Of a stretch of 64,000 nucleotides of DNA, positions 8,921 through 38,635 are shown in pieces (position 1 is the stretch's first letter; each line of letters starts with the position of its first letter). The DNA lies in NCBI GenBank assembly GCA_977020255.1, contig CDROCS010001741.1, forward strand, positions 62,001 through 126,000. Reading direction: 5' to 3'. A program made the position numbers and the translations under genes. The notes beneath the pieces are model-generated. The model did not search any database. It saw only the letters and a list, made by a program, of their open reading frames with translations, and was not told the origin of the DNA. Origin of the DNA: Obrimoposthia wandeli. Lineage: Eukaryota.

Positions 8921-10960
8921 CCAAAGCCAGATTAATAGTCTCATAGGCCCTAGGCAATTTGAAAACTATTATTGAGTTATTATATTTGATTATTGATTAT
9001 ATTTTATTCGCTAAACAAAGTTTTAACGAATTAAAGAATAGATTCTTGGCTTAAAGGATACTTTTGAAAGTAAATATATTTACTCGTTTATTATTTGTAT
9101 TAAATTATATTCTAAAAAATTTTCGTAAAAAAATCAACCCACAATTGTCGATAGATATAAAAAATGTCATGAATCGGGTCAAAGGAAAGCTACGAGAGAC
9201 GATATGACGAAAAAAGAGAGGATATATACTTTAGTATTTTGAAAAATCAACAACCGATTTTGGAAATAACAATTCAGAATCTTATTCAGAGTCTAATAGC
9301 GACAATCAGGCTTCCAATTAATTTAACTTCGATGCAGAAATCGTGTTTCCAACAGAAAATGCAGCAATCCCATATCCAACTAATGTGCAGATTGTGAATT
9401 TAAATCTAGAAGGCAGCAATTATCCAGCTAAATGGGATTTGAATGCTGAAACTATTAATAATTTTGCCAAAAATCCTCCATCTCAAAATTTGGAGTCAAA
9501 AATTGTTTTAAAAGGCAGTGGATATGGGAAGCATACAAGATACGTCAGGAAGGAATTTTTCATCCAAAAATAAACAAATAGTGAATTAATCAAACGATGC
9601 AGGCTAATGTATTTCTCCTTCGACAGGAAACGTATTTTGTTACGTTTGCAAGCTTTTTAGCACTTCTATTCAATGTAGTAATCAATTTAAAAGGGGATTT
9701 TATGATAGGAAAAATGTTGTCAAAATAAATATCCATGAACAGTCAAAATATCACTTAGATGCTCTTTTAGCAATGGTACAGTGTAGTAAGTTTGTCACAT
9801 TGATAATCAGATTCAAGGAATAAAATAAAAAACATGCAAGTACAGGATTGAAGTTTTGAAAAGAATTATTACTGTAATATAATTTATTATTGCTTTCCGT
9901 GGAGATAATGAGTTGCATTATAACAGAGGTATTGGGAATTTTCTTGGTTGCATTGAACTTGTGGCTGAGTTTGATCCTTTAATCAAAGAACATATTCGTA
10001 AATACGGCAATCATAGAAAAGGAAAAGTTTCTTATCTTTCTTCCACAATTTGCAATGAATTTATTGAAATATTGGACGAGAAAGTATTGCAACAAATAGT
10101 ATATGAAATAAAGGAAGCTAAATATTATGGAGTTAGCATCATTTCTACGCCTGATGCTGAACATACGGATCAGCTGTCATTTATTATACGATACGTAAAT
10201 CAGGATAAAAATGTGGTTGAGCGTTTTCTTAATTTTTTTCCAATTGAACATCATGATGGAAAAAACCTATTTTACATATTACAAAATACGTTGAATCATC
10301 ACAGAATTGATGACAACTGAAGATCACAATCACATGACCGGGATTTATTCTGGCGGACAAGCAAGATTACGACGAGGAAATAAACTAGCTGGATGGGTAC
10401 CATGTTCTGCTCAGAGTCTTAATTTGGTTGGAGTAGCTGCTGCAGAATGCTGTTCAGAGTCGGTTAATATTTTTTGGACTTTAACAATCGGTATACACCG
10501 TTTTTCTACATCGCCACTAACATGGTTAAATTGAAAAAAACATAAGAGATAAAGTTTAGCACTGAAAAGATGGTCAGGACAAAGCGATGCTGTTAAATCA
10601 TTTAATATGAACTATTTTGAAATTTGCCAGACATTACTAGACATTGATAATTGCGTGCATCAACTTCAGACTGTTGCTCATTTGGCAAATGTGTTAGCTA
10701 AAAATTTTGATAATTTTGAAACAGTATTAATTGAGATTTTAGAACAAGAAGTACGATAGAAAATTGTAGAAAAAGGGGTATTGACAAGATTAGTATTAGC
10801 TAACTTACAGAATTTGAAGATTAATGAATTAAGACAGGAGTACGAAGATCGGTGCCTTGAACTTGTAGAAAAATGGACGGGGTTTGTAGATTTAGCAAAA
10901 ACATTAAAATTATGATATAGCGAGACAGGTTTAGACTGAGTTACCACCGATCAAGAGTAA
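8921..10960 (+). mobile_element. Degenerate hAT DNA transposon (ZMYM1-like/DUF4371 transposase)
   Basis: ORF 9913..10320 reads GNFLGCIELVAEFDP..SYLSSTICNEFIE..STPD..HTDQLSFIIRYV..ERFL. ORF 10307..10534 reads NMTGIYSGGQARL..WVPCSAQSLNLVG. hAT-like terminal sequence GCCAGATTAA..GGCCCTAGGCAA at ~8926-8957. Multiple stops; no right TIR found. Confidence 0.85.
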
Positions 10961-12779: not shown

Positions 12780-13420
12780 TATTTGTAGATCAGTGTAATT
12801 TGTTGTTCTGGCGATTTTTATGATTTTATAAGAGTGATTATATAAATGTATTATTTTGGAAAAAACTTGGATCCTCTTTTTATTTACTTCTTTTGTGAAA
12901 TTAGTTTTATTTGATCTCTAAAATACGTATAAATCTTTCTACTACTGCTGCTTTGTACTGCGAAAATATCGAGTAGTGATATATATTATTTTGTTTAAAT
13001 AATGATAGAAATTTATGATTATAAAATTATTTTCCTAAATCAGTTGCACATATTGCGGAATGTCCTTTTTTAATATTTCTTTAATGGCTTCAGCATATCT
13101 ATTAAAGACTTTGCTTTAAATGGAATTGCACAAGCAAACCTGCTAAATACATCAATACATGTAAAATATATCTGTATCCCTCATTAATGGAAGAATATGA
13201 TATCATCTCCATCAAATCCATTTGCCATAACTTGTTAGGACCACTGGTTTTGTATACTCTAGATGGAAACCTTCTTCTCATCGGCTTTGTTCAGACTGTA
13301 GGCTAACTGATCGTTCAGCCATTTATGCGTTTTCTTGTAATTCTGTTTTGTTCTTTTTGCCAATTTTGAATCCCTGGTGTTGCTCATTGGATCTTTTGGA
13401 TTGAACCATATCTTCTCCAT
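12780..13420 (-). pseudogene. Polinton/Maverick retroviral-like (DDE) integrase, frameshifted and 3'-truncated
   Basis: Starts MEKIWFNPKDP..KWLNDQLAYSL, then across frameshifts RRRFPSRVYKTSGPNKLWQMDLMEM..NEGYRYIL.CIDVFSRFACAIP..VQTDLGK..FYNHKF..KAAVVERFIR. This matches the Polinton integrase pattern WQxDL / IDVFS / QTDxG / KAxxVERF. Confidence 0.88.
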
Positions 13421-13506
13421 TATAACAATTTGAACATATAGAAAATTAAAATTTAGGTAAAAAAAGATTAGCACCCATATCTTTAGATGATTTTAAAAAT
13501 AATTGT

Positions 13507-13820
13507 TTATTTCCGTGTCGCAGCTATAATATTACATATAATTGAAGCAATAACTGATATAACAACCCCTATGAAACCGCCATTCTGTTTAAGAATAATT
13601 TTTCATTTCCCTTTTTACTTTTACTGTAGCAATATCTAGAAGATTTTTTCTATATTTTTCCGTTTATCAATTTTTATTCGACCCAAAACTATATTATACA
13701 AAACTTTCAATAAATCATGTACAACAAAATATGGAAATGTTTAAAGAATACTCATTTTTTTAGGAGAAGAAGCTTTGATAAAAGCTTTTAAATATGGTAT
13801 GCTTTTTATACTTTCTTCAT
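13507..13820 (-). pseudogene. Small Polinton protein ending in QNGG followed by a hydrophobic/amphipathic tail
   Basis: Hand translation: ..YLKAFIKASSPKK..VVHDLLKVLYNIVLGRIKID..LKQNGGFIGVVISVIASIICNIIAATRK*. Resembles the small conserved Polinton ORF with an NxLxGxI core and QxGGF tail. Lies between ATPase and integrase. Confidence 0.6.
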
Positions 13821-13935
13821 TTAACTTTCTTTTATTTCAAACTACAGACTTGATTAATTTATTCACTTTTTTTACTGATTATTTTTTTTGTTGATTTCTT
13901 ATGCTTTGTTTTTACTTTACGTTTACGTTTTACTA

Positions 13936-14379
13936 TCAACTTCTTAAAAGGCATTGCAAATTTATTTTTTTATAATTGTTCTCTATTTGTTTATAAACAG
14001 TTACTCCATTAGAATTAAATATGTCTGTTAAAACACGTAAATCATCTGGGCAAGCTTGTGCAAAGACAATAAATATATACCCATTTGCTTGTTTAGCAGC
14101 ATCATGGAATGAATCAACTAAAAAGTTCTTATTTTGGGAAAATGCTTGTCTGGCCACAAAATTTACAACTGTTTGATCTCTAGGATTTTAAAATTTTCCT
14201 TCAATTTGCAAACTTCTGTTTGGGTTAGTCCACTTTCCACTCCTCTACCATGATGCTAAAAATATTTTTGAAACTAGAATCGAAAGAGCTTCATTTTGTA
14301 TCAATTTATAAACGAAATGTGTTTTTCTACTTCCACTGGGGCCAACAATTTGAAATACATCATTATTATTCATTTCCAT
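13936..14379 (-). pseudogene. Polinton packaging ATPase (FtsK/A32-like), internally deleted
   Basis: Degenerate Walker A IVGPSGSRKT at ~14320-14349. C-terminal FKNPRDQTVVNFVARQAF..DSFHDAAKQANGYIFI..PDDLRVLTDIF. The Walker B region is missing. Confidence 0.85.
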
Positions 14380-14415
14380 TACATAAACTCTTTCATTTTA
14401 ATATTGTTTATATTA

Positions 14416-14649
14416 TCATAGAAGTTTCCTTATCGAAAAGTATAATGGCAGAGCTACTGTATATGACAATAAAAAATTAATAAATGAATATTTGGCTATA
14501 ATTTTATTTATTTGTGTTTCATTTCTAAATTCTCGAATAACGTGTGATCTAACCAACATTTCAATGTTATCTCTTGTTATATCATTATTTTTTAATTTTG
14601 ATAAAATTTGTTTACCCTTAATTTTTACAGAAAAACATTTAATCAACAA
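14416..14649 (-). CDS. Small hypothetical ORF in the Polinton cassette
   Basis: 77-aa ORF co-oriented between the TBP-like gene and the ATPase; no motif recognised. Confidence 0.3.
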   Translation of the reverse strand: MLIKCFSVKIKGKQILSKLKNNDITRDNIEMLVRSHVIREFRNETQINKIIAKYSFINFLLSYTVALPLYFSIRKLL

Positions 14650-14784
14650 GTCGATCTACTTCGTTTTTTGTATTTATAGTATTATTCATTTGAAACAATT
14701 ATTCATTTAAATGGGTTTGTTTATAGAAAAAATAACAAAATGTAATAAAATATATATTAAAAAATTAATTCAATAGTGTTTTGA

Positions 14785-15128
14785 TAATCCAAATTTCACA
14801 ATCCCCATATCATAACTTAACCACTAGAAAATATATTTACACATAGCGGTGTAAACTTCAAATATCTGAGTGCAGGAAAAATTTCAGGTTCAAACATGTA
14901 TTCTTTCATTTTCTCCACAATTTTATAAAGATTTATTGGCTTCCCGAGATTACCTGAATCTGTGATTGATTGTATGGCGCAGATTTTAATTCCAAATGGT
15001 AAATTGATCTCATTCATCGGTAGTTTGCATCCCTTAACACGACAACTTCCTGAAATATTCAATATGAAAATAAAATGAAAACTAACTTGAAAAAAAATGA
15101 CAACTGTGAAATCATCAAACATTTGCAC
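14785..15128 (-). pseudogene. TATA-binding protein (TBP)-like gene carried in the Polinton cassette
   Basis: IQSITDSGNLGKPINL..FEPEIFPALRY..VNIFSSG*VMI aligns by eye with TBP repeat 2 (IQNMVGSCDVKFPIRL..YEPELFPGLIY..LIFVSGKVVLTG). ISGSCRVKGCK resembles the end of repeat 1. A premature TAA replaces the conserved Lys codon after SG. No introns. Confidence 0.75.
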
Positions 15129-15134
15129 ATATTG

Positions 15135-15713
15135 TCATGGCTTCCAATCATAGAGGCTAGAGTGGGTATCCTTTTGTATTTCCTTATTGAAATACCACGA
15201 GACTATTCGAACGAGTCCAGCTTGTTCTCTACGATTCATCTTTAATCGAATAGTCTGTGTTGCTCCTAGATCCACCGTGCACGAAAAATCGTTTTTCTGC
15301 AGTCCTAAAACCTTGAGGTCGTTGGTTATTCCCGTTCCTACGAAAATGTTGTCTCTTAGCAAGGACTGAACGCGTTGTAACACTTCGACAGAAACAGGTT
15401 GGTTTCTTAACTTACGTTCGTTGAGGCCCGTTATTCTTGTCACATAATTCCTGATTCTGTCTCTGCTATTGCATTTTGTATCCAACACGATTTGTCCGCT
15501 TTTGTTCATTATAGTAATGTTGGCAAGGGTGGGTTGTTTATTCATTTTTACTACCATTTTACAATCGACAAAAATTATTTGAGGATTGTTGGGGCAAATA
15601 TTCAAATGGCAGACTTGAACGGGACTAGGTCGCACATTTTGTTCTATGAATAATATGTTATGTCTACCTGATAAACGAATCATCAAATCGGGAGTTATTT
15701 GATGTCTCATCAA
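15135..15713 (-). CDS. DEDDh 3'-5' exonuclease of the REX4/ISG20 type; the catalytic Glu appears substituted
   Basis: FVDCKMV (cf. DCEMV), LANITIMNKSGQIVLD, YVTRITGL, IFVGTGITNDLKVLGL, IQKDTHSSLYDW (cf. IQxxxHSSxEDA). Open 192-aa ORF. Confidence 0.85.
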   Translation of the reverse strand: MMRHQITPDLMIRLSGRHNILFIEQNVRPSPVQVCHLNICPNNPQIIFVDCKMVVKMNKQPTLANITIMNKSGQIVLDTKCNSRDRIRNYVTRITGLNERKLRNQPVSVEVLQRVQSLLRDNIFVGTGITNDLKVLGLQKNDFSCTVDLGATQTIRLKMNRREQAGLVRIVSWYFNKEIQKDTHSSLYDWKP

Positions 15714-16126
15714 CCGGTAAGAGTGGTTTTGTAGGAAAAGAACGGAGAAATGCTTGCTTTTTTGTGTTTTAAAAATCCACGGCCTTTTGCTACGTGAATC
15801 TCAATGTCAGTGCATGTAGGCAAGAATTTCATCAACTCAAACAGTCTTTGTTCTGTTGGCTTTTTGCAATTTTTGTTGAGAATTATGCTCTGTCTAGGGT
15901 TGTCTCTTAATTTGATGTTATTTAGAAGCTGGGTCTGATTTTCAAAAATCTTTATTCCGTAATGGTTATGGAAATACCTTGTTCCAAACTGCTTTATTTT
16001 TCCATAAAGGAACTTAGTCATTTTTGCCATTTCTGGACGTTGTTCTGTTAACTGGACTGACTTCTCTCTCTTACTCTGCGGCACAACCTGCCAGTTCAAA
16101 TGAGGATTTGTACTTGTGGGTTCCAT
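15710..16126 (-). CDS. Hypothetical basic protein of the Polinton cassette
   Basis: Open frame (likely start MEPTSTN at 16126). Its TGA overlaps the ATG of the exonuclease gene. No family recognised. Confidence 0.5.
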   Translation of the reverse strand: MEPTSTNPHLNWQVVPQSKREKSVQLTEQRPEMAKMTKFLYGKIKQFGTRYFHNHYGIKIFENQTQLLNNIKLRDNPRQSIILNKNCKKPTEQRLFELMKFLPTCTDIEIHVAKGRGFLKHKKASISPFFSYKTTLTG

Positions 16127-16550
16127 CTGTAGGGTATACAGATATAGTAAAAAAATGTTGATTTTACACGCAAATATAAAAATTGTCAAATATTTATAAA
16201 TTGAAATGTTCGTGTCAGTTTATTTGTCTCTTTTTGTTTATCAAAAGTCTGTAAATCATTTTAGTTTTTTGATGTAACAAGCTCAATCAAACAGGTATAT
16301 AAATAAGATATATTTTTTCATTCTTTACTACATATTCTTGTTACTTCTATTATCAATATCAATATATACATATCTATATAAATATTTTCGTTTTTATTTA
16401 TTCTTAATATTTAGTATGACACTTTAATTAAAGTTAATGAATATTAATACCCATTTATAAACATATTTCTCTTCCAAGTCATGCCATAAGCTCAAACTCA
16501 TTCTCAATTTTCTTTTAATTCATATTCCAATCTACTCACTGGGGATTTTA

Positions 16551-16904
16551 CTAATTTTCACACCCGGAATTATTACTTTCTCCCTGTTGAAATCCCATTA
16601 AACGATTAATTACTGATCTCAATGATACAAGAGAGTTTAACGCTTCTTTGAGTCGTCGTACTAATAATTCCTGGTTTGTTTGGCTATGTTCTAATATCTC
16701 AATTGCAACGTCAAAAGCATTATTCATTCGCTCACATTTCATTTCCTTGTCTTTTAAATGCGATCTCAGATTTATATTTTCTATCAATAATTTATTTTCC
16801 CATTTCTTCTGTCTCTTATATCTTCTTCTATTATTTTGTACTATTTTTGAATTTCTCATTTCTAAAATGTTAATAAGTTTTAAGTTCATTTTTACTATTT
16901 TCAA
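16551..16904 (-). CDS. Hypothetical coiled-coil protein
   Basis: 117-aa ORF with a basic cluster (RRRYKRQKK) and heptad-like Leu/Ile spacing; co-oriented upstream of the cassette. Confidence 0.35.
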   Translation of the reverse strand: MKIVKMNLKLINILEMRNSKIVQNNRRRYKRQKKWENKLLIENINLRSHLKDKEMKCERMNNAFDVAIEILEHSQTNQELLVRRLKEALNSLVSLRSVINRLMGFQQGESNNSGCEN

Positions 16905-17049
16905 TTTAAACTAAACACATACGCACTTTCCTTCATCTACATTATAATTACTTTATTTTATGATTAGTTTTTATTTTAGTATGTCAATTCATGTATTTTC
17001 TTGTATGACAATTTTATAAAGATTTTTCTCTTTACTTTTTATTATTCTC

Positions 17050-18240
17050 AATTATTGTATTTATTGATATGTTAGATGAGTTTGAAGAGCTAGGTATGAT
17101 AGATGTTATAAATGGGCCAGGAGGTTCACAATATTTAGTCCGATAATGTTTTTTGAAAATTGTGTTATTTTTTACTTTAATGACTTTCCATGTTATTTTT
17201 ATTATTTATGTAAAGATTTCAATTATTATGATTGTTACAAAAATTTCCTTGTTATTTATATTTTTTTAGTATTTTTGTTTACAAAAGTGTATTTTTAGAC
17301 TTTCATTAAATGATTTATAGGGTATTGTTTCTGTTGTTTTTAATTTTTTGTTAATTTTTGTAATTTCTGTAATATTAATTTGATTTGTAATTTCATAAGT
17401 CTTTGTTGTGAAGGTTGTAGCATGTGGTATTTGTTTTATGGTTGTTTCTTTGATATATTTCCTAATTGTAATTACTGACCAATGGCCACAAAAATCGTAG
17501 GTTGATATAATTTGGATATTTTATTTCCTAAAATCCTTTAGTTTGTTAGATTTCTACAAGTCTCAAATTGTTGTCCCCATTGTCTATACATTATTGGTTT
17601 GTTAGTAATTACACATTCTCTATTATCCATAATTAATTTTTCTGGATATCTTATATTTTTTATAGTTATATTTGTTTTGATTTGTTATTTTTCTAATTGT
17701 TTTTCTGCGTCTTTCCAAAAATGAGCATTATGTCCTCTATATCTAATTCTAATGAAGGCTTTATCTAAGTTATCTATTTTAAGTTGAAATTCTCAATTTA
17801 TCATGATTTGATGTTTTGTTATATAATTTGCTGTCGTCTTTAATATTGAAGCTAAGTATAAATGAGTTTCTATCATTCTTTCATAGAGTGTTATATTCTT
17901 TAAATTCGACTTAACTCTTATTTTGTATTGTGTTTCTGTTCTTAAAAATGGTATTATATAATTTTTTTGAATTAATTTTGTAAATATTTATGATTTGATT
18001 TTTTTCAGATTGGATTATCTGAATTCTTCCTAATTTTCTTGTAAAGAGTGATATTTTAAACTTTATTGATGTGATTTCAGGTATTATTGTAATTAGTCCA
18101 AAATCTTTTATGAGATGTGTTGATGAGTCCTATTTATTTGTTTTGTGTTTTACTATAAATTGATTTTCATTCAGGTTTATTGCGTTTACTTTCATTAGGT
18201 TACTTTTTATTGTAAAATATATTACCAATAACATCATTAT
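17050..18240 (-). pseudogene. Degraded extra ORF downstream of integrase (env position); possible secreted or membrane protein
   Basis: Hand translation: hydrophobic start IMMLLVIYFTIKSNLMKVNA, Cys/Trp-containing segments (RECVITNKPIMYRQWGQQFETC, YDFCGHWSVI), a Thr-rich part and NxT/S sequons. Many stops. Confidence 0.4.
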
Positions 18241-19488
18241 TTTACATTTTTTTTTATTGACATTTTTATTGTATTTCTAGTTTGATGACTCAAAATAGTC
18301 TTGTTTTGTTTTTGTGAGTTTTTTATAGTTAACATTTGTAGAACAGTATTATTGCTAGTTGATCTTAAGTTATATTTGTGACTTTTTACTTTTGTATTTT
18401 CCTCAGGTATTTCTCGACATCTGTTTATATGTGTTCTTATTTCTTTTGATTTTGGTTCATAGTCGAGTTTAGCTGTTATGTTAGTTCCGTTGGTACTAAT
18501 GACTGTATATGGTCCTCTGTATGGTTTTGATAATTTGTGTGACAATCCTACATTAATTTGTGGATTGTAAATCATTACTTTACTTTCGCTTTTTATATTT
18601 GATGGCTTAGTTCTCTATCATAATATTCTTTGTAATTTTCTTGTATGTTTTTTACAAATAATTTAGCTTTTTCGAATGCTAGTTTTATTCTTTCTTTAAT
18701 TTCTATTTTATATTCAGGTATTTCTAGGTACTGTGTAGTAGGTTGTAGTAATGTTAGGTCAATAGGCATTTGAGGATCTCTAAGGAACATAAGGTAAAAA
18801 GATGTTTCTCCTGTAGATGCATGTACTGATGTTCTATATGCAAAAAGGCATGGAGGTATATGTAAATCCCAATCTGTTTGGTTGTTGTTTGTGTATGATG
18901 CCATTATATCTTCGAGGGTTCTATTAAATCGTTCTACTAATCTGTCGGTTTGAGGGTGATATGGTGTCGTATTGATCTTTTTTATGTGAAAAATTTCAGC
19001 TATTGACGCTAATACATTATTTATAAATTCAGGACCTTTGTTGGTTAATAATTTTTGGGGTGCACCGAAAGTAAAAATAATTTTTTCGACTAAAACCTTC
19101 GTATTGGTTTCAGCCTTATGACCATGTGTTGGAAAAGCCTTTGGCCATCTTGTAAAATAATCAGAAAATACTAATATATATATCGATTTCCTCGGGGTGT
19201 TTCAGGTAATGGTCCCATTACATCCATGGCAACAGTTTCCATGGGGGCTGATGGATAAGGTATTGGTTTTAAAGGTATTTTTGTGGTACGTAAAGTATTT
19301 TTCCGTTTAAGACATATTTCACATGTATTGCACCAATTTTTTACATCTTCTTTCATATCAATCCAATAATATTTTAAGTTTAATCTCGAATGTGTTTTTT
19401 TAGTTGAAAGATGTCCTCCTAAAGCTCCGTTATGATATTGAAGGAGTAATTGACATTGTATTTCTTTAGGAATAACTAGTGAGTACAT
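18237..19488 (-). pseudogene. pol: Gypsy integrase (HHCC, DDE core, GPY)
   Basis: YHNGALGGHL..YYWIDM..CNTCEIC; VAMDVMGPLPET; TTPYHPQTD.LVERFNRTL (hand-read between the track ORFs); WDLHIP..FAYRTSVHASTG; KLSKPYRGPY. Confidence 0.95.
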
Positions 19489-19530
19489 ATTTTTATCGTT
19501 TAAATAATGTAAAATTTTGTTACTGAATTT

Positions 19531-20960
19531 CTAACGAGATTCATGAAATTTCAAATGTTTTCTTAATTTTTCATCTGTTGGAACTTGATTGATAGTTATG
19601 TACTTAATTATTTGTTGTATTTCAGTATCTTTGCTTTGAAGATCGGTGATTACTTTTTCATCATATTTTGCTTTAATTATTGTGAAAAGATTTAATTCAG
19701 TATCATCTAAAGTCATTGTGTTTATGTCTTCTTTTATTCGAGATAGACAATCTGCGTTAGTGTTTGATTTACCTTTTCTATATTTTATCTCAATATCATA
19801 TTTTTGAAGAATTAACACCCATCTCATTAATCTAGATGTTGTATCTTTATGATTTAGTAGCCACTGTAAGGGTCTTTGATCGGTATAAACGTAAACCTTT
19901 CGGCCTAATAAGTAATGTTTAAAATGTTCTATAGAAAAACAAATAGCTAGGCATTCTCTTTCTATAGTTGAATAATTTATTTCGTGTTTTTTAAGACCTC
20001 TGTTTGCGTAAGCTATCAGATGATCTTTTTCGTTATTATCTTGTTGTCCTAGTACTGCTCCTAACGCGTATACACTTGCGTCAGTCATTACCAAAAATGA
20101 ATTGTTAAAATTAGGATATCTAAGTATAGGTTTTTCAATTAATTTTTGTTTTAAGTATTCGTATGACTCTTGTTGTTCTGTTTCCCATTCAAATTTTTCA
20201 TCCTTTTTAATAAGTTTATTTAACGGTGTCACTATTTGTGCAAAGTTTCTGATAAATCTACAATAATATCCTGCGAGTCTCAGAAATTCTTGTATATTTT
20301 TACTGTTTTTGGGATCGGAAATTTTTAATTTTTTTCTATATTACTCTCGTATGTTTGAATTACTTTTGCAGACACTGCGTGACCTAGATAATTTACCTTG
20401 TCTTTCATCCATTCACACGTTTTAGGCTTTAATTTTAAACCTGCTATTTTTAATCTACGGAATACGTTTTCTAAGTCTTTTAAATGTTCCTCAAATTTTT
20501 TTGAAAAAATACCATGACGTGATCGGCATCCATTAAAATGTGACTCATGCATATCTGAAATGTTGTGGGAGCACATGTTAAGCCAAAATGTAATACATTA
20601 AATTCATATAATCCTTCTCCTGTTGAGAATGCTGTTTTCTCTTTATCAGATTCTTTTATCTCTATTTGCCAATATCTACTCTGTATATCTATTGTTGTAA
20701 ATATTTTTGCATTTTTTAGTTTATCTAAGATTTCATCGATTCTTGGAAGTGGATAAGTGTCTTTATGTGTAACCTCGTTTAATTTTCTGTAATTCACACA
20801 AAATTTTAATGAATCATCTTTCTTTTTTACTAAAACAACCTACGGAATACGATAAAGTCGTTGTTTAATCGTTCTGCTAGCAGTTAGAGGAAGGTTATGT
20901 TTTATTAAATCCGTTCGTCCAAGGTCATATTCATTTTTAGCAAAAATTACATCGTATTTT
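19531..20960 (-). pseudogene. pol: Gypsy reverse transcriptase and RNase H; the YxDD motif is deleted
   Basis: YRKLNEVTHKDTYPLPRIDE, YWQI..DKEKTAFST..GLYEFNVLHFGL, YLGH. RNase H: TDASVYALGAVL..NYSTIERECLA..YTDQRPL..RWVLILQ..ADCLSR. The sequence jumps from VMV to FSKKFEEH near 20510. Confidence 0.95.
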
Positions 20961-21330
20961 TCTATCAATGATTTAAGTTTTGATTTTTCATAATCATTTA
21001 GTTTAATGTTTTCAAAATTTATTGTCGAATTGTCTTCTATTTTTCGTTACTAATTAACTCAATATTCTCGATAATACTTATTTTTTCAAGGTGTACTCCT
21101 TCCTTAAGATGAATTTTGTTTATGTCTGCATTTAATATTCTGATAGGTATTGTATTATTTTTTATTTTGCAAATTATATTTGGTAGAACATAGTTTAGTG
21201 TTTTTTATTGATATTTATAAGGTTCGAATAATATATATTTTTCTGTGATTAAGTTAGTTTCTAATTGTAATATTGTTTCCGTTCGTGGTTGAAGTATAAC
21301 ATCTCCTTTTATTTCTAACTCAAATTCGCT

Positions 21331-21685
21331 TTAAGTGTTTGATCTGTAAATATCTCTAATTTGATTTTTCTCAAAGTCAAAATGAAAATTGCTTCCTATT
21401 TTCCTTAATGTATCTATACCAATAATCATCTGGCAATGACAATTTTTCATAATTCTGGGTGGTATTTTAATAAATTTATCTCCTATTTTAAAAATGCAAT
21501 CTAATTTACCAATAATATTTATGGGTTGACCGTTTGCTGCTGTTACTTGACTATTATCTCTGAGAAGTAGTAATCTTTGGTCTGGTTTTAAGAAAGACTC
21601 GTCCAAGACTGTAACGCTTGATTCTGTGTCAATTAAAGCTTTTAATTTGTACTCATTTATTTCAACTTTTACATAAGGTCTTCTA
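21331..21685 (-). pseudogene. pol: Gypsy aspartic protease (DTG>DTE), in the same open ORF as the env transmembrane region
   Basis: RPYVKVEINEYKLKALIDTESSVTVL..VTAANGQPINIIG..MIIGIDTL within ORF 21331..22074. Confidence 0.92.
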
Positions 21686-21879
21686 TCATTATCTCTTTGA
21701 TTTATTGTATATATTGTTGGTGCAGTTGATTTTTGAATTATTTTTTCCTCTTTATAATTTGCTAAATCGGGATATTGTGCAGATTCTGTATTATCTTTAT
21801 TTTTATTGTCTACTAGTTTTTGTAAATTTATTTCTCGCATTTCCTTCGATAATGCATTTACTGTATTTTGATGATGGTT

Positions 21880-23216
21880 AAATATAAGAAATTTTGTCAA
21901 AAATGGAAAACATCCCAAAATTAGTTTCCATGTCAATCCACCAACTTTATAAATATAATATGTAGATAAAATTTGACTCAAAAGAATCTTAAAGCATATT
22001 AGTAGCGTGTATATTCCTACAAGTCCAGAAAATGCTTGACCGAAAATTAAAACTTTTCCCCATATTTTTGACATTGTATTTTTAGTAACTTTTATAAAAT
22101 GATTTGGAGAAACTAATAAATCGTAATCAGGACTGCTAATTCCGTCTGGTACTGATTTTTCAATAATTTGCGTTAAAATTCGTGATCTAATTTGAGGAAA
22201 TAAAATGAATTTTATTAATTTATCTATGTCTTCTTGTATGTGTGGTTGTTGTTTTTTTTGTTGGTGTGGTTTTTGCGTTATATATTTTTTCCTTACTTAA
22301 ATATATTCCTTTATAGTTTTTTGTATAAATAGAGTGTTCACATCGGGATTCCTCTTTCTTTTTAATAAATCGCATTCCAGAACCTTGTTTAGTTGACATA
22401 AAAATAGTTGGAGTTGATGTTTTTTGAATTTTTCTTGTCCTATATTTTTGATGTATATCTTTTGGAACTCTTTGATCAAGTTCTGGGTCATCTTTAAATC
22501 TTTGACCTTGAATTATTTGAAAACTTTCAGATTTAAGGAGTATTAATTTGCATTGCTCTGTTTTTACCTTATAATATAAAATTGAGGATCCTGTATTGCA
22601 ATGAACTATATTTGCTTCGCATAGTTACCATATTATTTGTAGAGGGATCAAATGTTGCTTTAAACGTCCATAGTTCTACTTCAAAGTTTTTTATCACTAC
22701 TAAGCCACTTTGTTTGACTCCCATCACGATGTATGTACCTGTTGTACATGCACCGTCAGATTTTATTGTTCCTATTACTGTAATTATTTGTTGTATTATT
22801 TTATTTTTTACTGCTCGTACTTTAATTTCTCTATCTATTCTTAGTTCTCCCGTTGCAAAAGCATCCTTAAAATTTAGTGCATCAACAATTACTGGTATTT
22901 TTCCCAATGCAGGTTTGACAATCGAGTTATGGCTGTGTTGTCCGCAATATGTTATGAATGTTTCTACATGTACCCTACACTCGAAAACTTCGGTGTTTAT
23001 AAAATCTGTTTCCTGATATACGTGGAATAACTTAGTGGTTTTAACTTTTACTTTATTTGGGTCTGCGTGGGCGCATTGTTGTAGATCCATTAAGGAGTAT
23101 TTATTTTGGATACTATATTTTGAGCAATCATATGTTTCAAGAGCATTTATAGGTTTTAATATATTCATAATTATACATATTGTAAATATTAATTGAATTA
23201 ATTTCCATAGTTTTTG
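21880..23216 (-). pseudogene. env: Envelope glycoprotein resembling chuvirus/Jingchuvirales class III (gB-like) fusion protein; internally deleted
   Basis: Signal-like segment then LETYDC..YSL..C..VYQ..VFECRV..TYCGQHSH.S.V..TGEL..GACTTG (ORF 22569..23168). Middle frame ..IFMSTK..RCEHSIYTKNYKGIYLS. Then QEDIDKLIKFILFP and KIWGKVLIFGQAFSGLVGIYTLLICFKILL..GLTWKLIL. The motif order matches my recollection of chuvirus-type glycoproteins. Confidence 0.8.
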
Positions 23217-24671
23217 TTAGAACAGTATGTCTTTTTTATAGTTTTTATTTTTCGATTTTTTGGTGACTCGCTTTCTATTTTTAATTTTTGACTCTGTGTT
23301 TTGTGTTTGAGTATTTTGGTTAATTTTTATATTTGTGTGTTTTAATGTCAGGCAACCATTTCTAAACATGTCTCCAAATTCTGATTGTGCGTTTGAACTA
23401 TTTGTATTTTGTTCATTATTTTGATATTGTTGTTGTGTTTGTTTGTAACGTTTATCTATTTCTTGTTGTCTTAATCTCAATAATGAGACTTCTTCAGTTT
23501 TCTGGGTTATATCAGTGTTTTCTATAGTATGTATTGGTTTCTGTAAGCATATTGTTGATTTTGATTGTTAAATTGCACTGATTTTTGGATTTGTGGTTGT
23601 TGTTGTTTTATTGAGGTGTTACCAAATTGTTTCATTACTGTTTTTAGTTTACCACATTCGTCAGTGTTGTGGTTTTTCATATTACATATTTTACAAAATT
23701 TTGTATTAGCATTAAAATATTTAGCTTGATTATTCTGATTATTGAAATTGTTATATAGACTTCTGAAATTATTATTTGGATTATTGAAATTATAATTTTG
23801 TGGTCTTACATTATTATTTTGTCTATATAACAATTTTCGACAAGTTTCAATGTTATGATTATCTTTTTTACAAAATCTACAAAATTTATTGTTTGTTATT
23901 TTTCGGCAATTTTCTATTGTGTGATTTTGCAGTCCACAATTTGTGCATTTCTGGAAAGGTCTTTGTGTAAATTGTGAGTCTGTATAGTTTCTGTTTGTTT
24001 GATTTCTATAAAAGTTATTTGTCAGTGGTCTATATTGTTGTTGGTTATGGTAATTAAATTGTGTGTTTGGGTTAAAGTTTTCGGTATGGTTGTTATTTGG
24101 TGGTGTTGATGGTCGTTGTATTTTTTTCAAAAGTTAGCGCTGAAACTTCTGTTTGTTGCAACATATTTAAGCTGGTTTCTACAAGTTGAGCTTTATTTAT
24201 AGCTTGTTGAAGCTTTTCTACTTCTAGTAGTGCTGGGTGATTTTTGATTTTATCGTTTAGTCCATATAGGAACTGATGTAGTAGTAAGCGTTCTCTTAAA
24301 GCTTCTTCAATTCCGGGAAATGATTTTAAGGCTAATCTTCGTAATTCAACTGCAAAGATATTTGTGGGTTCTCCCATATGTTGCCCACGTTACCTAAATT
24401 GGTTAAAGTAATTTTGTTCTGACTGTGCTCCTAAAATCATATTTTGAAAATTCTGAACCAAATGGTCCCATGTGTCTTTTTGTTCATTAGTTAATCCTTT
24501 ATAAATTGTTAAAGCAGTGCCTTTTAAATATGCTGGAAAAATCCTAAGTTTCTCTGCATTAGTCCACTCAAATGCCTGAGCAAATGAATCAAACCTATTC
24601 ATAAATTCGGGTAGTGAAGATTTAACGCCATTGAAAGCGTTTAATGGAAAATTTAACTTATGTGCAGCCAT
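23217..24671 (-). pseudogene. gag: Gypsy gag (capsid-like domain, Asn/Gln-rich nucleocapsid with three CCHC knuckles, basic tail); frameshifted
   Basis: FNG..PEFMNRFDSFAQAFEWTNAEKLRIFPAYLKGTA..W..L; R.Q..GEP..FAVELRRLA..QFLYGL; CTNCGLQNHTIENC, CRFCKKDNHNIETC and CKICNMKNHNTDEC (Cx2Cx4Hx4C). Confidence 0.9.
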
Positions 24672-24738
24672 TATTTGAGGTTGGTCGATTATTTGTTTGT
24701 TGTTTATCTGTATAATAGGTGGTTCTGGTCATAAGGAA

Positions 24739-24939
24739 TGTGTGGGGCAGAACGGCTACTTGCGCGGTAAAAGCATGGATGCACTGTTGCATATAGACAT
24801 GGGACATCTACGCGAAGTAGTATGGCGCAAGATCGCTATGAATCTCAATCAGGCGGAGCAAGATGAAAGCTTCAATTGCTGGCAAAATAAAAAATAAACC
24901 TGACACAAGCTGTTAATCCGACTTCAGTTCTGGTCAACA
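24739..24939. repeat. Candidate LTR-like segment (TG...CA) just upstream of gag
   Basis: About 200-bp GC-enriched block bounded by TGTGTGGGG and CAACA, 68 bp from the gag ATG. No second copy and no canonical TGG PBS found. Confidence 0.3.
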
Positions 24940-27840
24940 TACCAGGCCTACCTGAGATTTATCTGGGAGCTTGACCCTGACTAATGTAAACATTAGCGCA
25001 TAATGAGCTAACATTAATAATTTGTATGCACTTTAAAGTACTTCAAACACATAATCAATTGCCCCGGATGGGCTTAACTAACCACATTCCTCTATCAACC
25101 ATCGTAAACATCACATTTATTAATTATCATCAGATTATTTCGCATATTTTAAGTGACCTAAAATCATTTGAATTGGTCAATAAAACCATTTATGCAATTA
25201 TTAGCGCTTTATGATGATTATGCACACGTATGTGATTGGTGATTTGTATCGTTTTTAAATAGCTATGCTTTAAATCAAGTGTGAAATTTGTAGTAAGTCA
25301 ATGTTATGGATATTATATTATTTAACAACTTGTAACATAATGCACATTCACAATATTTTATTTTCTATAAAACAACTCTTTATAAAATATTTCGGCACAA
25401 TTTCGATTAATATTAAAATAATTATTTTTACGAAACATTCGGCACATACAGCATAAAATACTTATTTAATTAAGGAGTTCATTTAACAAATTGCAGTCCA
25501 GCAAAATCAAAAAGAAGTTTTATTAGGCAATGTATATATTGATGTACACGTAAATATAAATTGTAAGTAAATATGAATCATATATATGTTATCGTTTACG
25601 AATTTTTGCATTCTAAACAAATTTAGAGATAATTAACCAGGATAATTACCCTTATAAGTCAATTATGTGAAAAATAGGGTGATATAAAGGAATTCCACTA
25701 ATATCTAACTACTTAACATGAATAAAATATTAAAAAAATAGAATTTAGATTGCTTAACGAAAAAAATGAGAAATTTTAAATCTATACGGAGTCACTTAAA
25801 GAAAAACATTTTAAAACTAAAATCTAAGACTGGTTGAAATTACAAGGTTTAGAATGACATGAATATTATCAAGAGTTACTATTGTTTCTACAAGATGGAG
25901 CCGTTATGTCAGAAGTGTTTTGGATTCCATATTTGAACAAAGATGGATTGGATTAAAATGGAAAAATACATTCTCAGAACATTTTGTTATGGAGAACTGT
26001 CAAATAGATGACATTCAACCAAGAAAATCATACATTTAATGATTTGATAAGTACAATAAAGAAATATACTAAGAAACAGAAATATGTGAAAACGTTATCA
26101 ATAACTTTGGGAATAGCAATGTATTACTGTTGAAGATATTCATCTTTAATAAATATGATTTCCCGTTTTCTGCATATTTTTATTTAAAAACTTAAAGAAA
26201 AACTAAAATTCTGTATTGAAATAAAGTTATTAATCTTTAAGTGACTGACCCTGTATAATAAATTAAAATCAGTCAACCCTAGAATAGTTCGTTACTTGAA
26301 AAGCTATTTTATTAGATGACAAAAACATTGTCAAATTATTTGTTATAAATCAAATTTTTTTCTTTTTTCTCATTCATGTTTCAAACGCATTTTTTATTTT
26401 GTTAAATTTTAGTTTAAACAAGTTTTCTTTCTGATTAAGTCACTGATTGCTCATCCTCATAAAAAATTAAATCATACAAATTATAAGTACATTATAAAGA
26501 ATATTCATGATTTTTCTTTATCAATAATTATTAATCAACATTTTTTAAATTTATTATTGAAAGCTAACTGAAAATCATTATTAGTAGGTAGATGTGGCAC
26601 TACCCACGCCACTAACAGCATCAACCCTGGGCAACTTCGCAACAGAGATATCTGAAGTAGGCATAACAATTCCCACCCATTTCTGTTTAAAATACTTTTC
26701 AAATGTAATTAATATAAAATATTCCAGTCTGTCCATTAAATAAATTACAACATATTAAAATAAGTCATAATTTTTGATAATTTAATCTGCATCAGCTGAA
26801 CTGACAAGATTCGATATTAGACAATAGCTAGAGATCTTCCGCATTAAAGGCAGGTGAATATGGTGCCACTGCTTCTGTTGTCTCTGACGAACTATCTGAG
26901 TCAGATTTTTTTGTGGTGAATGTAAACTTTCTGTATCTGAAGTTAATGTTAGGTTTAGGTGTTCTGAGAGTGAGGAAGTCTGTGTAAGTAAATCGTTATT
27001 TGTTGCAAAACTGATTTGTGATTTGGGTCTTTGAATCGTTTTCTCACTGGAGTCTGTCCTAACTAATCTTGTTTGAATTCGTCTCCAGTGAAGGCTAGCG
27101 CTACGTTTTTGTTTATTTATTTTGTGTGTGTTTTTATGATAGTTTTTTTTGGGTTTGTGTTGTCAGTAATTTATTTAAAGTTTCAAAAAAATTATTGTGA
27201 CAAATGAAAAATGCGCAATGCGTACTGAAACTAAAAATATTTCGGTGATATTCGTAAAAGTTATTTGGTCAATCTCAAAATCAAGTTCTCTTAATAATAT
27301 CAAAACACGTTCTCTGAAAATCTCTGGAGAAAATTTATCTATCCGAAGTTTTATTTGATTTTATGTTGTTTTTAAGTTAGAGTAAAATATCAAGACTCAA
27401 ACATTTCTCTCAAAATTTCCAATTTTTGATCAGTTTTATATTTATCCAAAAATATATATAATTCTTTCAACTTTTATTATCTTTTTAGTTTTTTATTTTA
27501 CTATTGCGTCTCTAATAGATAAATCCACTCCAATTTATAATTTTCAAAAACGAATCTTTATTGGTAAACCAGTTCAAAGGAAAATGTTAAAATCTATCTC
27601 AAAATTTATTGTATTTGAGTTGTGCTTCGTTTATTGATTACTTTTTAATATTTTCGTCAGTGTTCAAAACTCTATCCGACAACAGCCAGTGTTTAGCCTT
27701 TATGTGAACAGAACTCCGAAAACTGATAAATTATTTTTCTATTAATTTTACAATTAAATTGACATACACAACTCAAATTGTAAAAGAAGATTAGAGATAG
27801 GAACTCGACTATGTTTCAGAAAACAAAAATTATGTTTAAT

Positions 27841-27948
27841 CTTACGAGGCTTGTGCGCAAAGCTGAAAACACCTTAACTATTTAGTATTTTATACTTACG
27901 AGGCTTGTGCGCAAAGCTGCAAACATCTCAACAATTTAGTATTTTATT
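27841..27948. repeat. Direct repeat, 2 x ~54 bp
   Basis: CTTACGAGGCTTGTGCGCAAAGCTG(A/C)AAACA..TTTAGTATTTTAT at 27841 and ~27895. Confidence 0.85.
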
Positions 27949-28749: not shown

Positions 28750-29380
28750 ATTGATCCGAACATTCGGCCGACAATGTGTGCGCTTCTGTCGCAAGTCTGC
28801 AGTCTTTTAAGGGCAGCCACAGTCGAGGGAGAACAACCGAGCTAACGCTCGAGGATCCGCAGGAGACAGCGAGATCACTTGATGACTGCAAATGTCACAT
28901 GGAAAGAAATCCGGGCAGTTTGATCCGACGTTACGGGATACTTTCAGTGGCAGGGAGTTAGAGAGGGATGGAAGAGGAGTGGGCATTAGAGAGGTGGCCG
29001 ATGCTGCTGTCCGAAATGTCATATGCGACGGTCCGCTCTGCAGCCTCAGCGCATGGATGATGGAGGAGAATGACAAATGTGATCCGTGAAGGTAGGCAGA
29101 CGCTACCAGTTGGATCCGGGTAGTTCCAGAGCGGTTAGGCAACTGATCAGGTCTAGGGCTGCCCGAGAGAGAGAAAAAGAGAGATAGAAAGAGACCGCTG
29201 CTACTGGGTGGTAAATCTTTTGCAGTCAAAACCGCTTTACTTTTTTTGTCAGATTTATCTATGACATTTTGCCATCTCCCTGATGAGGCCAAGGCAGGCC
29301 GAAACGGGTTTATCCCGTCGGAGGTTGTTTTAGAAAAATACCTCCCTGATTGTGGGCACCTCAGCAAAAATGTCAATTTT
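28750..29380 (+). mobile_element. Probable Penelope-like element (or retrozyme) 3' remnant
   Basis: GC-rich island in AT-rich DNA ending in a hammerhead ribozyme. Broken frames only weakly resemble a GIY-YIG C-terminus (..GE..R..R..DH..W; ..GRRYQLDP). Confidence 0.45.
29274..29325 (+). ncRNA. Type I hammerhead ribozyme
   Basis: ATCTCC-CTGATGA-GGCC(AAGGCA)GGCC-GAAA-CGGG(TTTAT)CCCG-TC^GGAGGT. Complete core, 4-bp stem II, stem III, 6-bp stem I (one G-U pair) and a GUC cleavage triplet at 29317-29319. Confidence 0.92.
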
Positions 29381-31335
29381 AATTGATATAATTTTAATTT
29401 ATTTCAAAACCCAATTTTAATTGATATAATTTAATTTATTTAAAAACCCAACATATGTATGAAGAAGTGAAACAATATTTCAAATACAAAGTCAGATTCT
29501 TGAAGAAGCCTCAACTGATTGCTCTAGTAAATTCTGTGACAACTGAAAGAAGAAAGTTCAGCTATTATCTATCAAATATTCAAAAACCAGATTTTCAATA
29601 TCTTAAACAGAAAGTATAAAAGGCAGTTCCAATAAATTATGTTTTACTGATGAAGATTGTGAGGCAAAAGAAACATATCCCTTCTTGGGTCACAAATATT
29701 AGAAAAAGGCTTCTTAATGCTGACTAGAGTGGAGATGTGAAGAAAATACGACTAAAACGAAAAAGTAGACCGAAAGAAAGTGTCAATGTTGGATTTTCTA
29801 AAAATATAGCTGATAATAGAGCGTCATTATGGCGTGGGACCAGAATGAGTTGGCACTGCTCTCTAACAGTCGATAATATTTTAGATCTCATCCGTGAGAT
29901 CGTCTGCACATATTGACCAAACTGTTCAACTATTAAAATGGCTTATTTAGTGCAATTATTTTTCAATTTCCTAAGCTTGTTAGAAATATGACTTCTAACC
30001 ATGAAATTCCATAATTTTATTTCAATATTCTGCGAAAATATGAAGTTCTTAGCAATATGATTTCTAGCTTTAAATAACAATTTTAACCCAGGTTTTGTCA
30101 CAGTTTTCATCACCTAAGACTTATTACAATGTCAAATATTTATTCTGTTTTGAAAAACTCCCAATGAATTTTTTAGAGTAACTTTTCAGATCAATCTAGG
30201 ATTCTGTTGGGGCTTGGAAAAAGGAACTATGCATCAATACATTACTTCTGGATTTTATTTTTAATTCTTCGTTGTTTTTTATATTATAGCTACCTTTAAA
30301 TAATAGATCAATGTATTAAATGGCCATATTATTTATTTCCTTTATTTCCACGAAGCCATAATATAAAAATTAACAAAACACGATGCAACAAAGTAAATGG
30401 AAAACTTACGGTTGAAAGCTACTAAAATCTTACTAAATTTGACACTAAAATTAGTTGTAGATATACAATATTTCACAATTTATTGCATGATAATTAATTA
30501 ATATTATTATTATGATTTTTACATATATCAACTAGTTTTGTCAAAAAATGTACCTTTTTTAGTTTTGCAGATATCTTATCTGGTTAAATTTCTATTATTA
30601 AATATAAATAATGGTTACTATATTAGGCAATATTAAATAATGGTTTAATACGGATAGAAGGCTAGCACTGGATTATTTTTTACACGTGTAACTTTATTCA
30701 AGAAAATTAAACTAGAAATAAATTGTCAATTTCAAAAACTAATTGTGATGTGTTTCTTGTTAAATTGCACCTAAAGTTCGAGTTGATTTTTGTGTCGAGT
30801 CATATATTACAATAAAAGTCCATTGAGTAAGAGATTGTAGTAGTAATATCGTAAATAATTGCAGTTAAAGTTGTAAAGTGTAGAAATGAGTATTGCTCTG
30901 CACGTCGCAGATCTGCGTATTTGTATTACAAAAACAATTTCCTATGGGAAGAAAGTCGGAGGTAAGCAGACAGGACGGGGAACGAAAGGAAGGGATAGTC
31001 AAACATTGACATATGCTCCGTTGATAGGAATAGAGGGGAGATGGGAGGAATATTGTGGACAGTTGGCGACTGCTGGCAGGGGAAAAGGTTGTGTGTGCAT
31101 TTGTGGGAGGGCGAGGACGCCAATGACCGGGTCTCGAGTTTGTAAATACAGCCTGTCAAACGTAAACAAGGCCAATATTTACCCGGGCTTGTTTATGGGT
31201 CTGAATTGGAGAAAATTGGGTGTCGAGTGGAGGAAGACGGCTGCCCGGATGGATGGTGGGAGAAGACAAGTTGGGCAGGGTTGCCGCAGAAGGGTACACA
31301 TAAGGTTTTGTGTGATTGACATTGTTTGAAGTTGT

Positions 31336-36950: not shown

Positions 36951-37707
36951 TAATGATATTAAAACTATGATTTTTTTGTTTTGGTGAATGTTTGATTTGC
37001 AAAAAAGGTCACTATTTCAAATAGCTGCTATCTTTTAAAGAACCCACAAAAAACTTCAAGAGAACTTTGTATATCAGAAGAAGTGGAAAAAATAATGAAG
37101 ATTTAGAAGATTGTTGGGGTTTCTATACGAAACTTGTACAGATCCTCTTGAATGCGGAGGGCCCCAACGTGAGTTCGAATAGAAGCAGGTCTTAAAGTTG
37201 GTCGTGGCCTACTTAGTGTTATGGTTTGCCTATCTCTTGGACTATCTGAAGGTGTTTGATTTGACGTCTCTTAATCTGAAGGGTGCAAAACAACTTGTTC
37301 TAATGTAGGAAATCGTTTATTGGTAATTCACAATCTAAAACACAACAATACGTTTATGTACGTATTTTCTAAAAAGTACAGTAAAAATTCCTAAGACTTC
37401 TGTAAGTCTCTACAACAAGTGGGGATGAACCACGTATCGATTTTACGTTCGGGTTGATCGAGATTTTAGAGTTATTCTTCTAACTCGAGAATAAGCTCGC
37501 GTTATAGATTTCTTAATAATTTTACTTTGCTATCGGCTTGAGTTTTGGGGTTAAACCTTTATTCTTATGACGATAAAGGTGCGAATGCAATCTTCTTCCT
37601 AGGTTGGTTAATTTATAACACAACTCTCTTAAACTTCTTCAACTTAACTTAGAACGTGTGGGTAAAGTTTCTTGACTCGGCAATTCTATTGTTGTGAATT
37701 CAACCAC

Positions 37708-38171
37708 GAATTGTCAACTGTGGACAATGATTCTTATAAAAACCTAATTGTCAACGATGGACAATGAACACGCGATCCTAATTGTCAACGTGGGACAATG
37801 AGTATTTGATCCGAATTGTCAACGAGGGACAATGAATATGCGATCCGAATTGTCAACTAGGGACAATGATGTGATCCGAATTGTCAACTAGGGACAATGA
37901 TGTGATCCGAATTGTCAACTAGGGACAATGATGTGATCCGAATTGTCAACTAGGGACAATGATGTGATCCGAATTGTCAACTAGGGACAATGAATTTTAA
38001 ACACAAATTCGAAATAATATTAGAGGCAAATCCTAATTGTCAACTAGGGACAATGAATATGTTAAAGACAAATCCTAATTGTCAACTAGGGACAATGAAT
38101 ATGTTAAAGACAAATCCTAATTGTCAACTAGGGACAATGATGTGATCCGAATTGTCAACTAGGGACAATGA
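37708..38171. repeat. Array of 13 palindromic units ATTGTC-N7-GACAAT with variable linkers (31-bp core period)
   Basis: Units begin at ~37709, 37746, 37780, 37814, 37848, 37879, 37910, 37941, 37972, 38035, 38077, 38119 and 38150. Confidence 0.95.
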
Positions 38172-38264
38172 ATATTTTATAGAGTTTTCTCACCTATGCT
38201 GTGACTAGCTGCGACTAAGTCAAATCCGGTACTGGAACTAGCTGGAATTATTGAGACGATCGGC

Positions 38265-38635
38265 TTCTTTTAAGCAATAGGTTGGACAATAGGCGATTAT
38301 TCTTTTAAGCAATAGATTAGACAATAGGCGATTATTCTTTTAAGCAATAGATTGGACAATAGGCGATTATTCTTTTAAGCAATAGATTGGACAATAGGCG
38401 ATTATTCTTTTAAGCAATAGATTGGACAATAGGCGATTATTCTTTTAAGCAATAGATTGGACAATAGGCGATTATTCTTTTACGCAATAGATTGGACAAT
38501 AGGCGATTATTCTTTTAAGCAATAGATTGGACAATAGGCGATTATTCTTTTAAGCAATAGATTGGACAATAGGCGATTATTCTTTTACGCAATAGATTGG
38601 ACAATAGGCGATTATTCTTTTAAGCAATAGATTGG
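38265..38635. repeat. Tandem repeat, 35-bp unit x ~10.6
   Basis: TTCTTTTAAGCAATAGATTGGACAATAGGCGATTA at an exact 35-bp period with few substitutions. Confidence 0.97.

Follow-up and report, generated by a model that had tools for sequence, protein, structure and literature searches.

One reading frame from gag to a probable second membrane protein in a Ty3/gypsy element family of Obrimoposthia wandeli with a gB-like envelope

Introduction

Retroelements normally deliver their enzymes as Gag-Pol. The NERVs (reportedly the subject of Sacco et al. 2022, J Gen Virol) are said to be restricted to nematodes, to occur in low copy and to have gag, env, pro and pol in one continuous ORF, a glycoprotein captured from an RNA virus, and additional ORFs. 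The continuous ORF is also a property of the element family considered here; to our knowledge, NERVs have no second membrane protein after the integrase.

The GAG-ENV-POL order with a gB-type envelope is known for nematodes, bryozoans and flatworms from the work of Chary and Hayashi (PMC13524379). The HSV/gB-type errantiviruses treated there share with our family a Ty3/gypsy Pol and a gB-type env between gag and pol, and the ectodomain of some is, in the words of that paper, 'flanked by two transmembrane domains'. The env of Smed_errantivirus_1 has ordered motifs in common with the one studied here, as judged by eye only, and six Schmidtea elements measure 8.5-12.0 kb after subtraction of two 3,000-nt flanks (assumed to be included), compared with about 7 kb from gag to integrase in our family. 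The main text of PMC13524379 makes no mention of a polyprotein, Pol topology, a post-integrase membrane protein, a fused or single ORF, frameshifting, fibronectin or an exonuclease. The Anakin elements carry a chuvirus-like gB-fold glycoprotein inside an LTR element, but their backbone is BEL/Pao and not Ty3/gypsy, and an env between gag and pol is not described in the part of the source considered here (PMC7642597). The bdelloid Juno and Vesta LTR elements have a DEDDy exonuclease as ORF3, a 3' accessory, and so resemble our family in their 3' accessory DEDD exonuclease and coiled-coil ORFs but lack the gag-env-pol order, according to the part of that paper considered (PMC5408684).

Neither a post-integrase membrane protein nor a Pol bracketed by membrane anchors was found in the openly accessible article text that was searched, the main text of PMC13524379 included; within that text the two are the apparently new part. 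The env-Pol architecture was already known, since the order is in print and the continuous ORF is reported for NERVs; the evidence on selection and topology given below confirms it.

Results and discussion

A dead copy of an abundant family

The window (the whole stretch of 64,000 nucleotides that was analysed, positions 62,001 to 126,000 of contig CDROCS010001741.1, assembly GCA_977020255.1) is mostly 22-39% GC and has no tRNA gene within its length. It belongs to a genome of 1.35 Gb with many copies of the Ty3/gypsy family described here (24,668 first-look candidates, which is not a copy number), abundant enough to be a major component of that genome. The pieces recognisable in the window follow the order gag, glycoprotein and protease (PR), then reverse transcriptase (RT), RNase H and integrase (IN) (Table 1). 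The PR-RT-RNase H-IN order of Pol is that of Ty3/gypsy elements (Metaviridae), the Pfam families matched are the gypsy-type RT_RNaseH and Integrase_H2C2, and env is placed between gag and pol, as in the GAG-ENV-POL subgroup. Within the family, the glycoprotein match to PF24664 reaches E 5.5e-91 over profile positions 4-634 of 653; a PDB sequence search with the ectodomain gave no credible match.

This particular copy is dead. It has stops, frameshifts, a degenerate PR triad, a loss of about 540 bp of the ectodomain relative to its sisters (near 22256/22241), a 2.1-kb insertion in gag, for which no long second copy was found among the fetched loci, and a truncation at 15153. It has no LTR pair itself; the LTR-like remnant upstream may be its own 5' LTR.

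Table 1. Features of the element copy in the window (positions are those of the window; PR, protease; RT, reverse transcriptase; TM, transmembrane segment).
Feature	Positions	Strand	Evidence
LTR-like remnant upstream of element	29187..29460	-	72-73% to LTR starts of two sisters, 90-91% to another copy's LTR
5' leader	27483..27947	-	92% to one sister copy's leader
ATG-less 5' extension of gag frame, separated from gag by insertion	26865..27162	-	sister frame open; window match
Unrelated insertion of ~2.1 kb splitting gag frame, lesion of window copy	24730..26864	.	sister alignments begin at 24729
gag: capsid domain, three CX2CX4HX4C knuckles, basic tail; frameshifted here	23220..24728	-	PF03732 E 3e-4
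Predicted internal signal peptide 1: basic n-region, hydrophobic core, small residue before LETYDC	23142..23216	-	pattern in relatives
gB-like PF24664 ectodomain, frameshifted	22065..23141	-	PF24664 E 1.5e-27 and 6e-20; dN/dS 0.16
TM1, residues 82-102, closed by conserved Lys	21991..22053	-	only long uncharged span
Amphipathic helices, predicted cytosolic, incl. H2 (121-139), kinked at Pro131	21880..21990	-	KD19; AF2 helix break
Charged linker, envelope tail to protease	21688..21879	-	dN/dS 0.44; stop count
Retropepsin protease, catalytic triad degenerate here	21352..21687	-	Pfam; AF2 fold match
PR-RT linker, RT, RNase H; stops, frameshifts, 87-bp gap	19534..21330	-	PF00078, PF17917
Integrase (H2C2, core, GPY)	18240..19530	-	PF17921, PF00665
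Predicted internal signal peptide 2, post-integrase	18180..18250	-	in frame in 28/32 copies, open in 22; dN/dS 0.55
GP2 (probable membrane protein): predicted luminal domain with FN3-like motifs, TM2, short tail; fragmented here	17032..18180	-	frame continuity, dN/dS 0.40-0.58, hydropathy, weak fn3
Separate small coiled-coil-like ORF	16551..16910	-	no family match above cut-off
Separate DEDD-type exonuclease ORF within element, truncated at 15153 by another repeat	15153..16219	-	PF00929 E 1.8e-7

The sisters compared are the 39 top DNA matches other than the window copy itself, each scored separately. LTR pairs were found in 9 of 11 sisters tested (91-99% identical, ~0.5-1.6 kb aligned, spans of 13.7-16 kb), and two of six sisters inspected show TG..CA ends with a 4-bp target site duplication; TGG follows the 5' LTR as primer site. 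The stretch before the 3' LTR is pyrimidine-rich and not a standard polypurine tract (L061, L063, L070, L073, L078). Median pairwise identity among 45 copies is 0.94. Searches for other gag-env-pol families in the same genome returned apparently the same family.

Three CX2CX4HX4C knuckles can be read in a sister gag frame. Upstream of the first shared gag ATG, 107 codons are open and in frame in 19 of 21 copies. Over 2320 codons this frame has 10 stops, against 194 and 172 in the other frames. No shared CTG, GTG, TTG or ACG was found among the copies in this extension, which may be expressed via a non-AUG start or a spliced leader. At the other end there follow a coiled-coil-like ORF and a DEDD exonuclease ORF, present in 27 of 30 3' stretches and, in the nine listed, only 27-41% alike between subfamilies. 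The exonuclease ORF (PF00929 E 8.6e-7 in a sister) comes before the 3' LTR in those copies that have a pair of LTRs.

Envelope and protease in one frame

A minus-strand frame of 321 codons from stop to stop (22296-21334) joins the C-terminus of the gB-like glycoprotein to the retropepsin. Pfam places PF24664 (Monjiviricetes_fusion) at residues 21-176 (E 6e-20) and retropepsin families at residues 204-303 (best E 9e-8), and the run RPYVKV..ALIDTES is present, its Asp codon at 21630. The AF2 model of this frame (mean pLDDT 82.5, 65 rows) has long helices, a disordered linker and a domain whose fold is matched by Ddi1 and HIV-1 protease (best E 6.5e-9). A preliminary description of the locus had reported one 247-aa ORF passing from the glycoprotein end through a charged linker into this run, and the frame and its Pfam matches bear it out. 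The 247 aa are counted from a Met at 22074; being residue 75 of the frame and within the membrane-proximal helix, this Met is ruled out as a start. The same description had the frame continuing after a single TAA. The TAA lies at 21333-21331 and 41, then 55 further codons do follow in the same frame; the word "single" did not hold, as there is a second stop at ~21207, past the protease, and then a later frameshift. As a regulated stop the TAA is ruled out, since only 3 copies have it.

The distance from TM to PR is a multiple of three in 34 of the 39 sisters (405 nt in 33), the junction is open in 20, and any one stop site within it is common to at most two copies. In the light of these counts, the join is not due to chance, and the earlier proposal that Pol is an in-frame C-terminal extension of the envelope tail applies to the whole family, as does the conservation of frame and linker.

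Other routes from envelope to Pol were considered. Skipping of the 2A type is ruled out, with no NPGP in 14 of 14 polyproteins. The TM-PR linker has no structured slippery site; it has a single in-phase heptamer, kept in 27 of 45 copies (the background is 1.3 in-phase heptamers per 100 codons), and structure downstream of it is absent (-2.1 vs a background of -5.1 kcal/mol), so that frameshifting in the linker is unsupported. The one copy scanned for splice signals has no match to a GT[AG]AG donor-like or a pyrimidine-tract acceptor-like pattern in its 366-nt linker, and no conserved donor-like site was found in the linker.

The frame runs from gag to GP2

The continuity extends in both directions. 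Between the gag tail and env, 16 of 27 copies are in frame and 14 open. Each of the 18 anchor intervals that separate gag from integrase has a modal length divisible by three, the weakest being the long ectodomain (6 of 26 in frame, none open), and no stop between gag and IN is common to more than 3 copies. Past the integrase, as far as the GP2 tail, the modal distance keeps the frame in all 8 intervals. Of the other matches from a protein search, which favours open copies, 108 of 123 lack a stop, and among 124 frames 6 are at least 2,000 aa long. The four natural frames scanned (2439-2547 aa) all contain PF24664, PR, RT, RNase H and IN, with a gag match in two. In one natural copy a frame of 2,889 codons spans the entire layout, and its hydropathy has strong peaks at 617, 1188, 2476 and 2816 and a weaker one (KD 1.69) at H2. 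That the family has a single frame we regard as practically certain. The earlier reading of the locus thus stands for the env-Pol frame and, as a prediction, for the cytosolic placement of Pol (see below), and was incomplete, having missed Gag upstream and the signal, luminal domain and TM after the integrase.

Selection acts on this frame throughout. We have calculated dN/dS pairwise among 45 copies with a bootstrap over columns only, and since the copies are related the intervals are too narrow; decay after insertion shifts values towards 1, and the non-coding control is weak, resting on ~3 copies. Upper bounds are below 1 in all 13 coding segments: signal 1 gives 0.31, the ectodomain 0.16, TM1 0.21, the amphipathic tail 0.18 and PR 0.25. 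For the linker, the part across the junction on which the preliminary description had called for this measure, the value is 0.44 (0.26-0.82), again below 1, against 0.91 and 1.23 in the other frames, and it has 10 stops in 2,880 codons compared with 322 and 310. The signal 2 region gives 0.55 (0.35-0.86), with the other frames near or above 1, and GP2 0.44, 0.40 and 0.58, the last on ~11 copies. A single family-wide frame is therefore under purifying selection.

Predicted topology of the envelope tail and Pol

Across 79 sequences, residues 82-102 (TM1) form the only long uncharged stretch, closed by K or R at residue 103 in 87%. In the stretches that flank it, polar and hydrophobic columns alternate. 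All 12 fused proteins reach a KD19 of 1.6 or more at TM1, and none of them does so at H2 (121-139); among stand-alone proteins H2 attains this value in 5 of 20. In the fused proteins the longest uncharged run of H2 is 11 residues, with Lys on both sides and a Pro kink. The arrangement resembles that in herpes gB, with its membrane-proximal helix, its TM and its amphipathic cytoplasmic helices. With one true TM after the ectodomain, Pol is predicted to be cytosolic; its return to that side of the membrane, which the preliminary description needed, is thus borne out at the level of predicted topology. Before YDC, a signal-like segment is found in 8 of 8 fused relatives shown and in two stand-alone glycoproteins. 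Basic residues (+3) precede signal 2, and its c-region is of the small-residue type; this is an N-in orientation, which is sensible only with a cytosolic Pol and so supports the one-span reading independently.

Some observations point the other way. On an approximated translocon scale even TM1 scored +1.3, which counts against the topology; the net charge of the fused proteins is about equally positive on either side of TM1 (+2.5 before vs +2.8 after), making positive-inside support weak; and the KD of 1.69 for H2 in the full-length copy goes against a single span. All considered, it is very probable from these sequence features that Pol is cytosolic, and it would be bracketed by membrane anchors. 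The whole chain is predicted to cross the membrane four times, alternating in-out-in-out, with Gag and Pol cytosolic and both ectodomains luminal.

The post-integrase protein

Past the integrase, the frame holds signal 2, a domain of ~310 aa predicted to be luminal, TM2 and a short tail. Signal 2 is in frame with the integrase in 28 of 32 copies and the frame is open in 22. Among 128 GP2-matching frames, 79 have at least 503 aa, enough to include the integrase C-terminus if the usual stop is used, and 22 have 451-455 aa and begin just before signal 2; this recurrent break is the main counter-observation. A/T runs, which make up 10% of the bases, hold 191 of 648 small indels, an enrichment that could explain the break, and it is likely to be A/T-run slippage or an assembly error. 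That GP2 is a real membrane protein we consider to have good probability.

For its luminal domain, an FN3 fold is suggested by sequence motifs with about an even chance of being right. The fn3 match (PF00041) has 13.5 bits against a cut-off of 25 (Pfam E 0.09), it appears in none of three relatives' tails, Atlas gives 0.90-0.91 for two unalignable sequences with low recognition, and the AF2 model of GP2 alone has a pLDDT of 31. Among 2102 candidates of near length no homologue was found at E 0.01, and a relative's tail, searched against the genome of the window, gave nothing. Compared with the relatives' tails, GP2 had no BLAST match, a profile score below shuffles and a global z of 2.2 at best.

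Relatives in the databases

A search of 1.84 billion representatives gave 194 matches to ENA proteins; a scan of metagenome contigs gave no relative. We have scanned 18 distant proteins, chosen from 150 matches by score and length and including four stand-alone controls, and in 11 of the 18 a single chain carries PF24664 and, after it, PR and/or RT. Identity of the top relatives to the query is 24-44%. Six env-bearing relatives extend as far as the integrase; of these, four have a signal-like segment after it (P0003, P0007, P0026 and P0151), three combine a signal, a terminal TM and an LxPxTxY-like motif, and two (P0031 and P0136) have no post-integrase signal, TM or motif. Among pol-only proteins, P0027 has signal, TM and the LxPxTxY-like motif and P0064 has none of them. 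Compared with each other, the tails of P0003 and P0151 give a higher score than shuffles do.

Several of these proteins have peculiarities of their own. Two to four tandem protease domains, in some cases also after the integrase, occur in P0001, P0003, P0004, P0009, P0012, P0027, P0064 and P0151; P0151, of 4,844 aa, has ankyrin and C2H2 matches; and P0007, a full gag-env-pol-type polyprotein, is labelled as a hypothetical protein of a Flavobacteriaceae MAG and is probably a misassigned eukaryotic contig.

A possible mechanism and its alternatives

In flavivirus and alphavirus polyproteins, signal and stop-transfer segments in alternation lead a single chain through the ER, and signal peptidase and a viral protease cut it. 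The chain proposed here would work alike, but those are RNA viruses and homology is not claimed. Active ancestors would have made a polyprotein of ~2,800-2,900 aa in the order Gag, signal 1, gB-like ectodomain, TM1, amphipathic tail, PR, RT, RNase H, IN, signal 2, GP2 ectodomain, TM2 and tail. Host signal peptidase would cut after signals 1 and 2, yielding a membrane-anchored Gag, a type I Env-Pol whose Pol would be held at the C-terminal end as well, through the stub of signal 2, and GP2 as a free type I protein. Synthesis would be 1:1:1:1, and Pol would be packaged via the envelope tail and not as Gag-Pol. Crowding of spikes at budding could then lead PR to dimerise and release the enzymes. 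Membrane tethering and maturation coupled to budding are thus inferred by analogy. Taken jointly, this polyprotein with its mechanism, and the window element as a dead copy of a high-copy Ty3/gypsy LTR element of 14-16 kb with a gB-like envelope, form a reading that we hold to be reasonably probable.

The single frame could be real and most Pol nevertheless come from a spliced or internally initiated RNA (Gag-Pol minus env, or pol alone as in foamy viruses), with the tethering to Env incidental. Equal synthesis of capsid and enzymes would indeed be wasteful, and the ATG-less 107-codon extension of gag hints at unusual RNA processing or initiation. Against this, purifying selection acts on the linker in the frame of Env, the copy scanned had neither donor- nor acceptor-like match in it, and the fusion is kept in families as distant as those of the top relatives, all of which makes the explanation unlikely. 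It is also unlikely, in our estimate, that PR or a host protease frees Pol from the Env tail right after synthesis, in which case the fusion would be an economy of expression and Pol would be packaged by binding Gag or RNA. Residues 172-200 of the linker are predicted by AF2 to be disordered, as is typical of cleavage sites, and many Ty3/gypsy elements have single gag-pol ORFs; but retropepsins need dimerisation, usually reached only at assembly, and a second hydrophobic anchor brackets Pol.

Two further alternatives concern single segments of the chain. GP2 might be a separate gene or be reached by recoding, the fusion to integrase being one allele. The frames that begin just before signal 2 would fit, yet most GP2-matching frames would reach further upstream if they end at the usual stop, most copies have signal 2 in frame and the fusion recurs in four unrelated env-bearing records, so that we find it very unlikely. 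If H2 were a second true span, as its hydropathy in one copy and in a quarter of the stand-alone proteins might indicate, PR-RT-IN would be luminal, another route to a cytosolic Pol would be needed and signal 2 would become a stop-transfer segment. The short, Lys-flanked and kinked H2 of the fused proteins and the N-in character of signal 2 leave this a slight probability at most.

Returning to the one-span polyprotein, its broadest version, a widespread gag-env-pol lineage with a flavivirus-like four-pass ER polyprotein, Pol as a cytosolic loop held at both ends, a gB-like fusogen and a captured FN3-type attachment protein, is tentative and stands somewhat below an even chance. If true, it would mean a herpes-like split of binding and fusion in a retroelement and enzymes packaged through the envelope and not the capsid. 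Were Pol to hang from the envelope tail, each round of transposition would depend on membrane assembly and env would be less easily lost than in the Drosophila errantiviruses, a possible reason for its long retention in these lineages. Herpes gB needs partners for triggering. GP2, if real, would be a candidate partner for the gB-like fusogen, and none has been described for these elements in the literature searched; its most likely role would be that of an attachment or immune-shield partner.

Neighbouring repeats in the window

Next to the element, positions 12831-15152 are a separate repeat of ~2.3 kb with a TBP-like frame on the minus strand (14820-15134, PF00352 E 4.7e-7). Sister alignments end at 15153, which rules this frame out as part of the element. 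The repeat has 30,504 first-look candidates, 150 of which were scored, many with one TAG inside the match, and it often adjoins or sits within copies of the LTR family. Positions 9883-10320 (plus strand) have a fragment of a hAT-like transposase (DUF4371 E 2e-5, below the cut-off). Two decayed Polinton/adintovirus-like stretches, 88-94% alike, are found at 1-1500 and 56400-60300, with matches to pPolB (PF03175 E 2e-4) and to an endonuclease VII-like protein, and tandem arrays with units of 31-42 bp, 35 bp and ~111 bp occupy 37691-38719 and 60931-61384.
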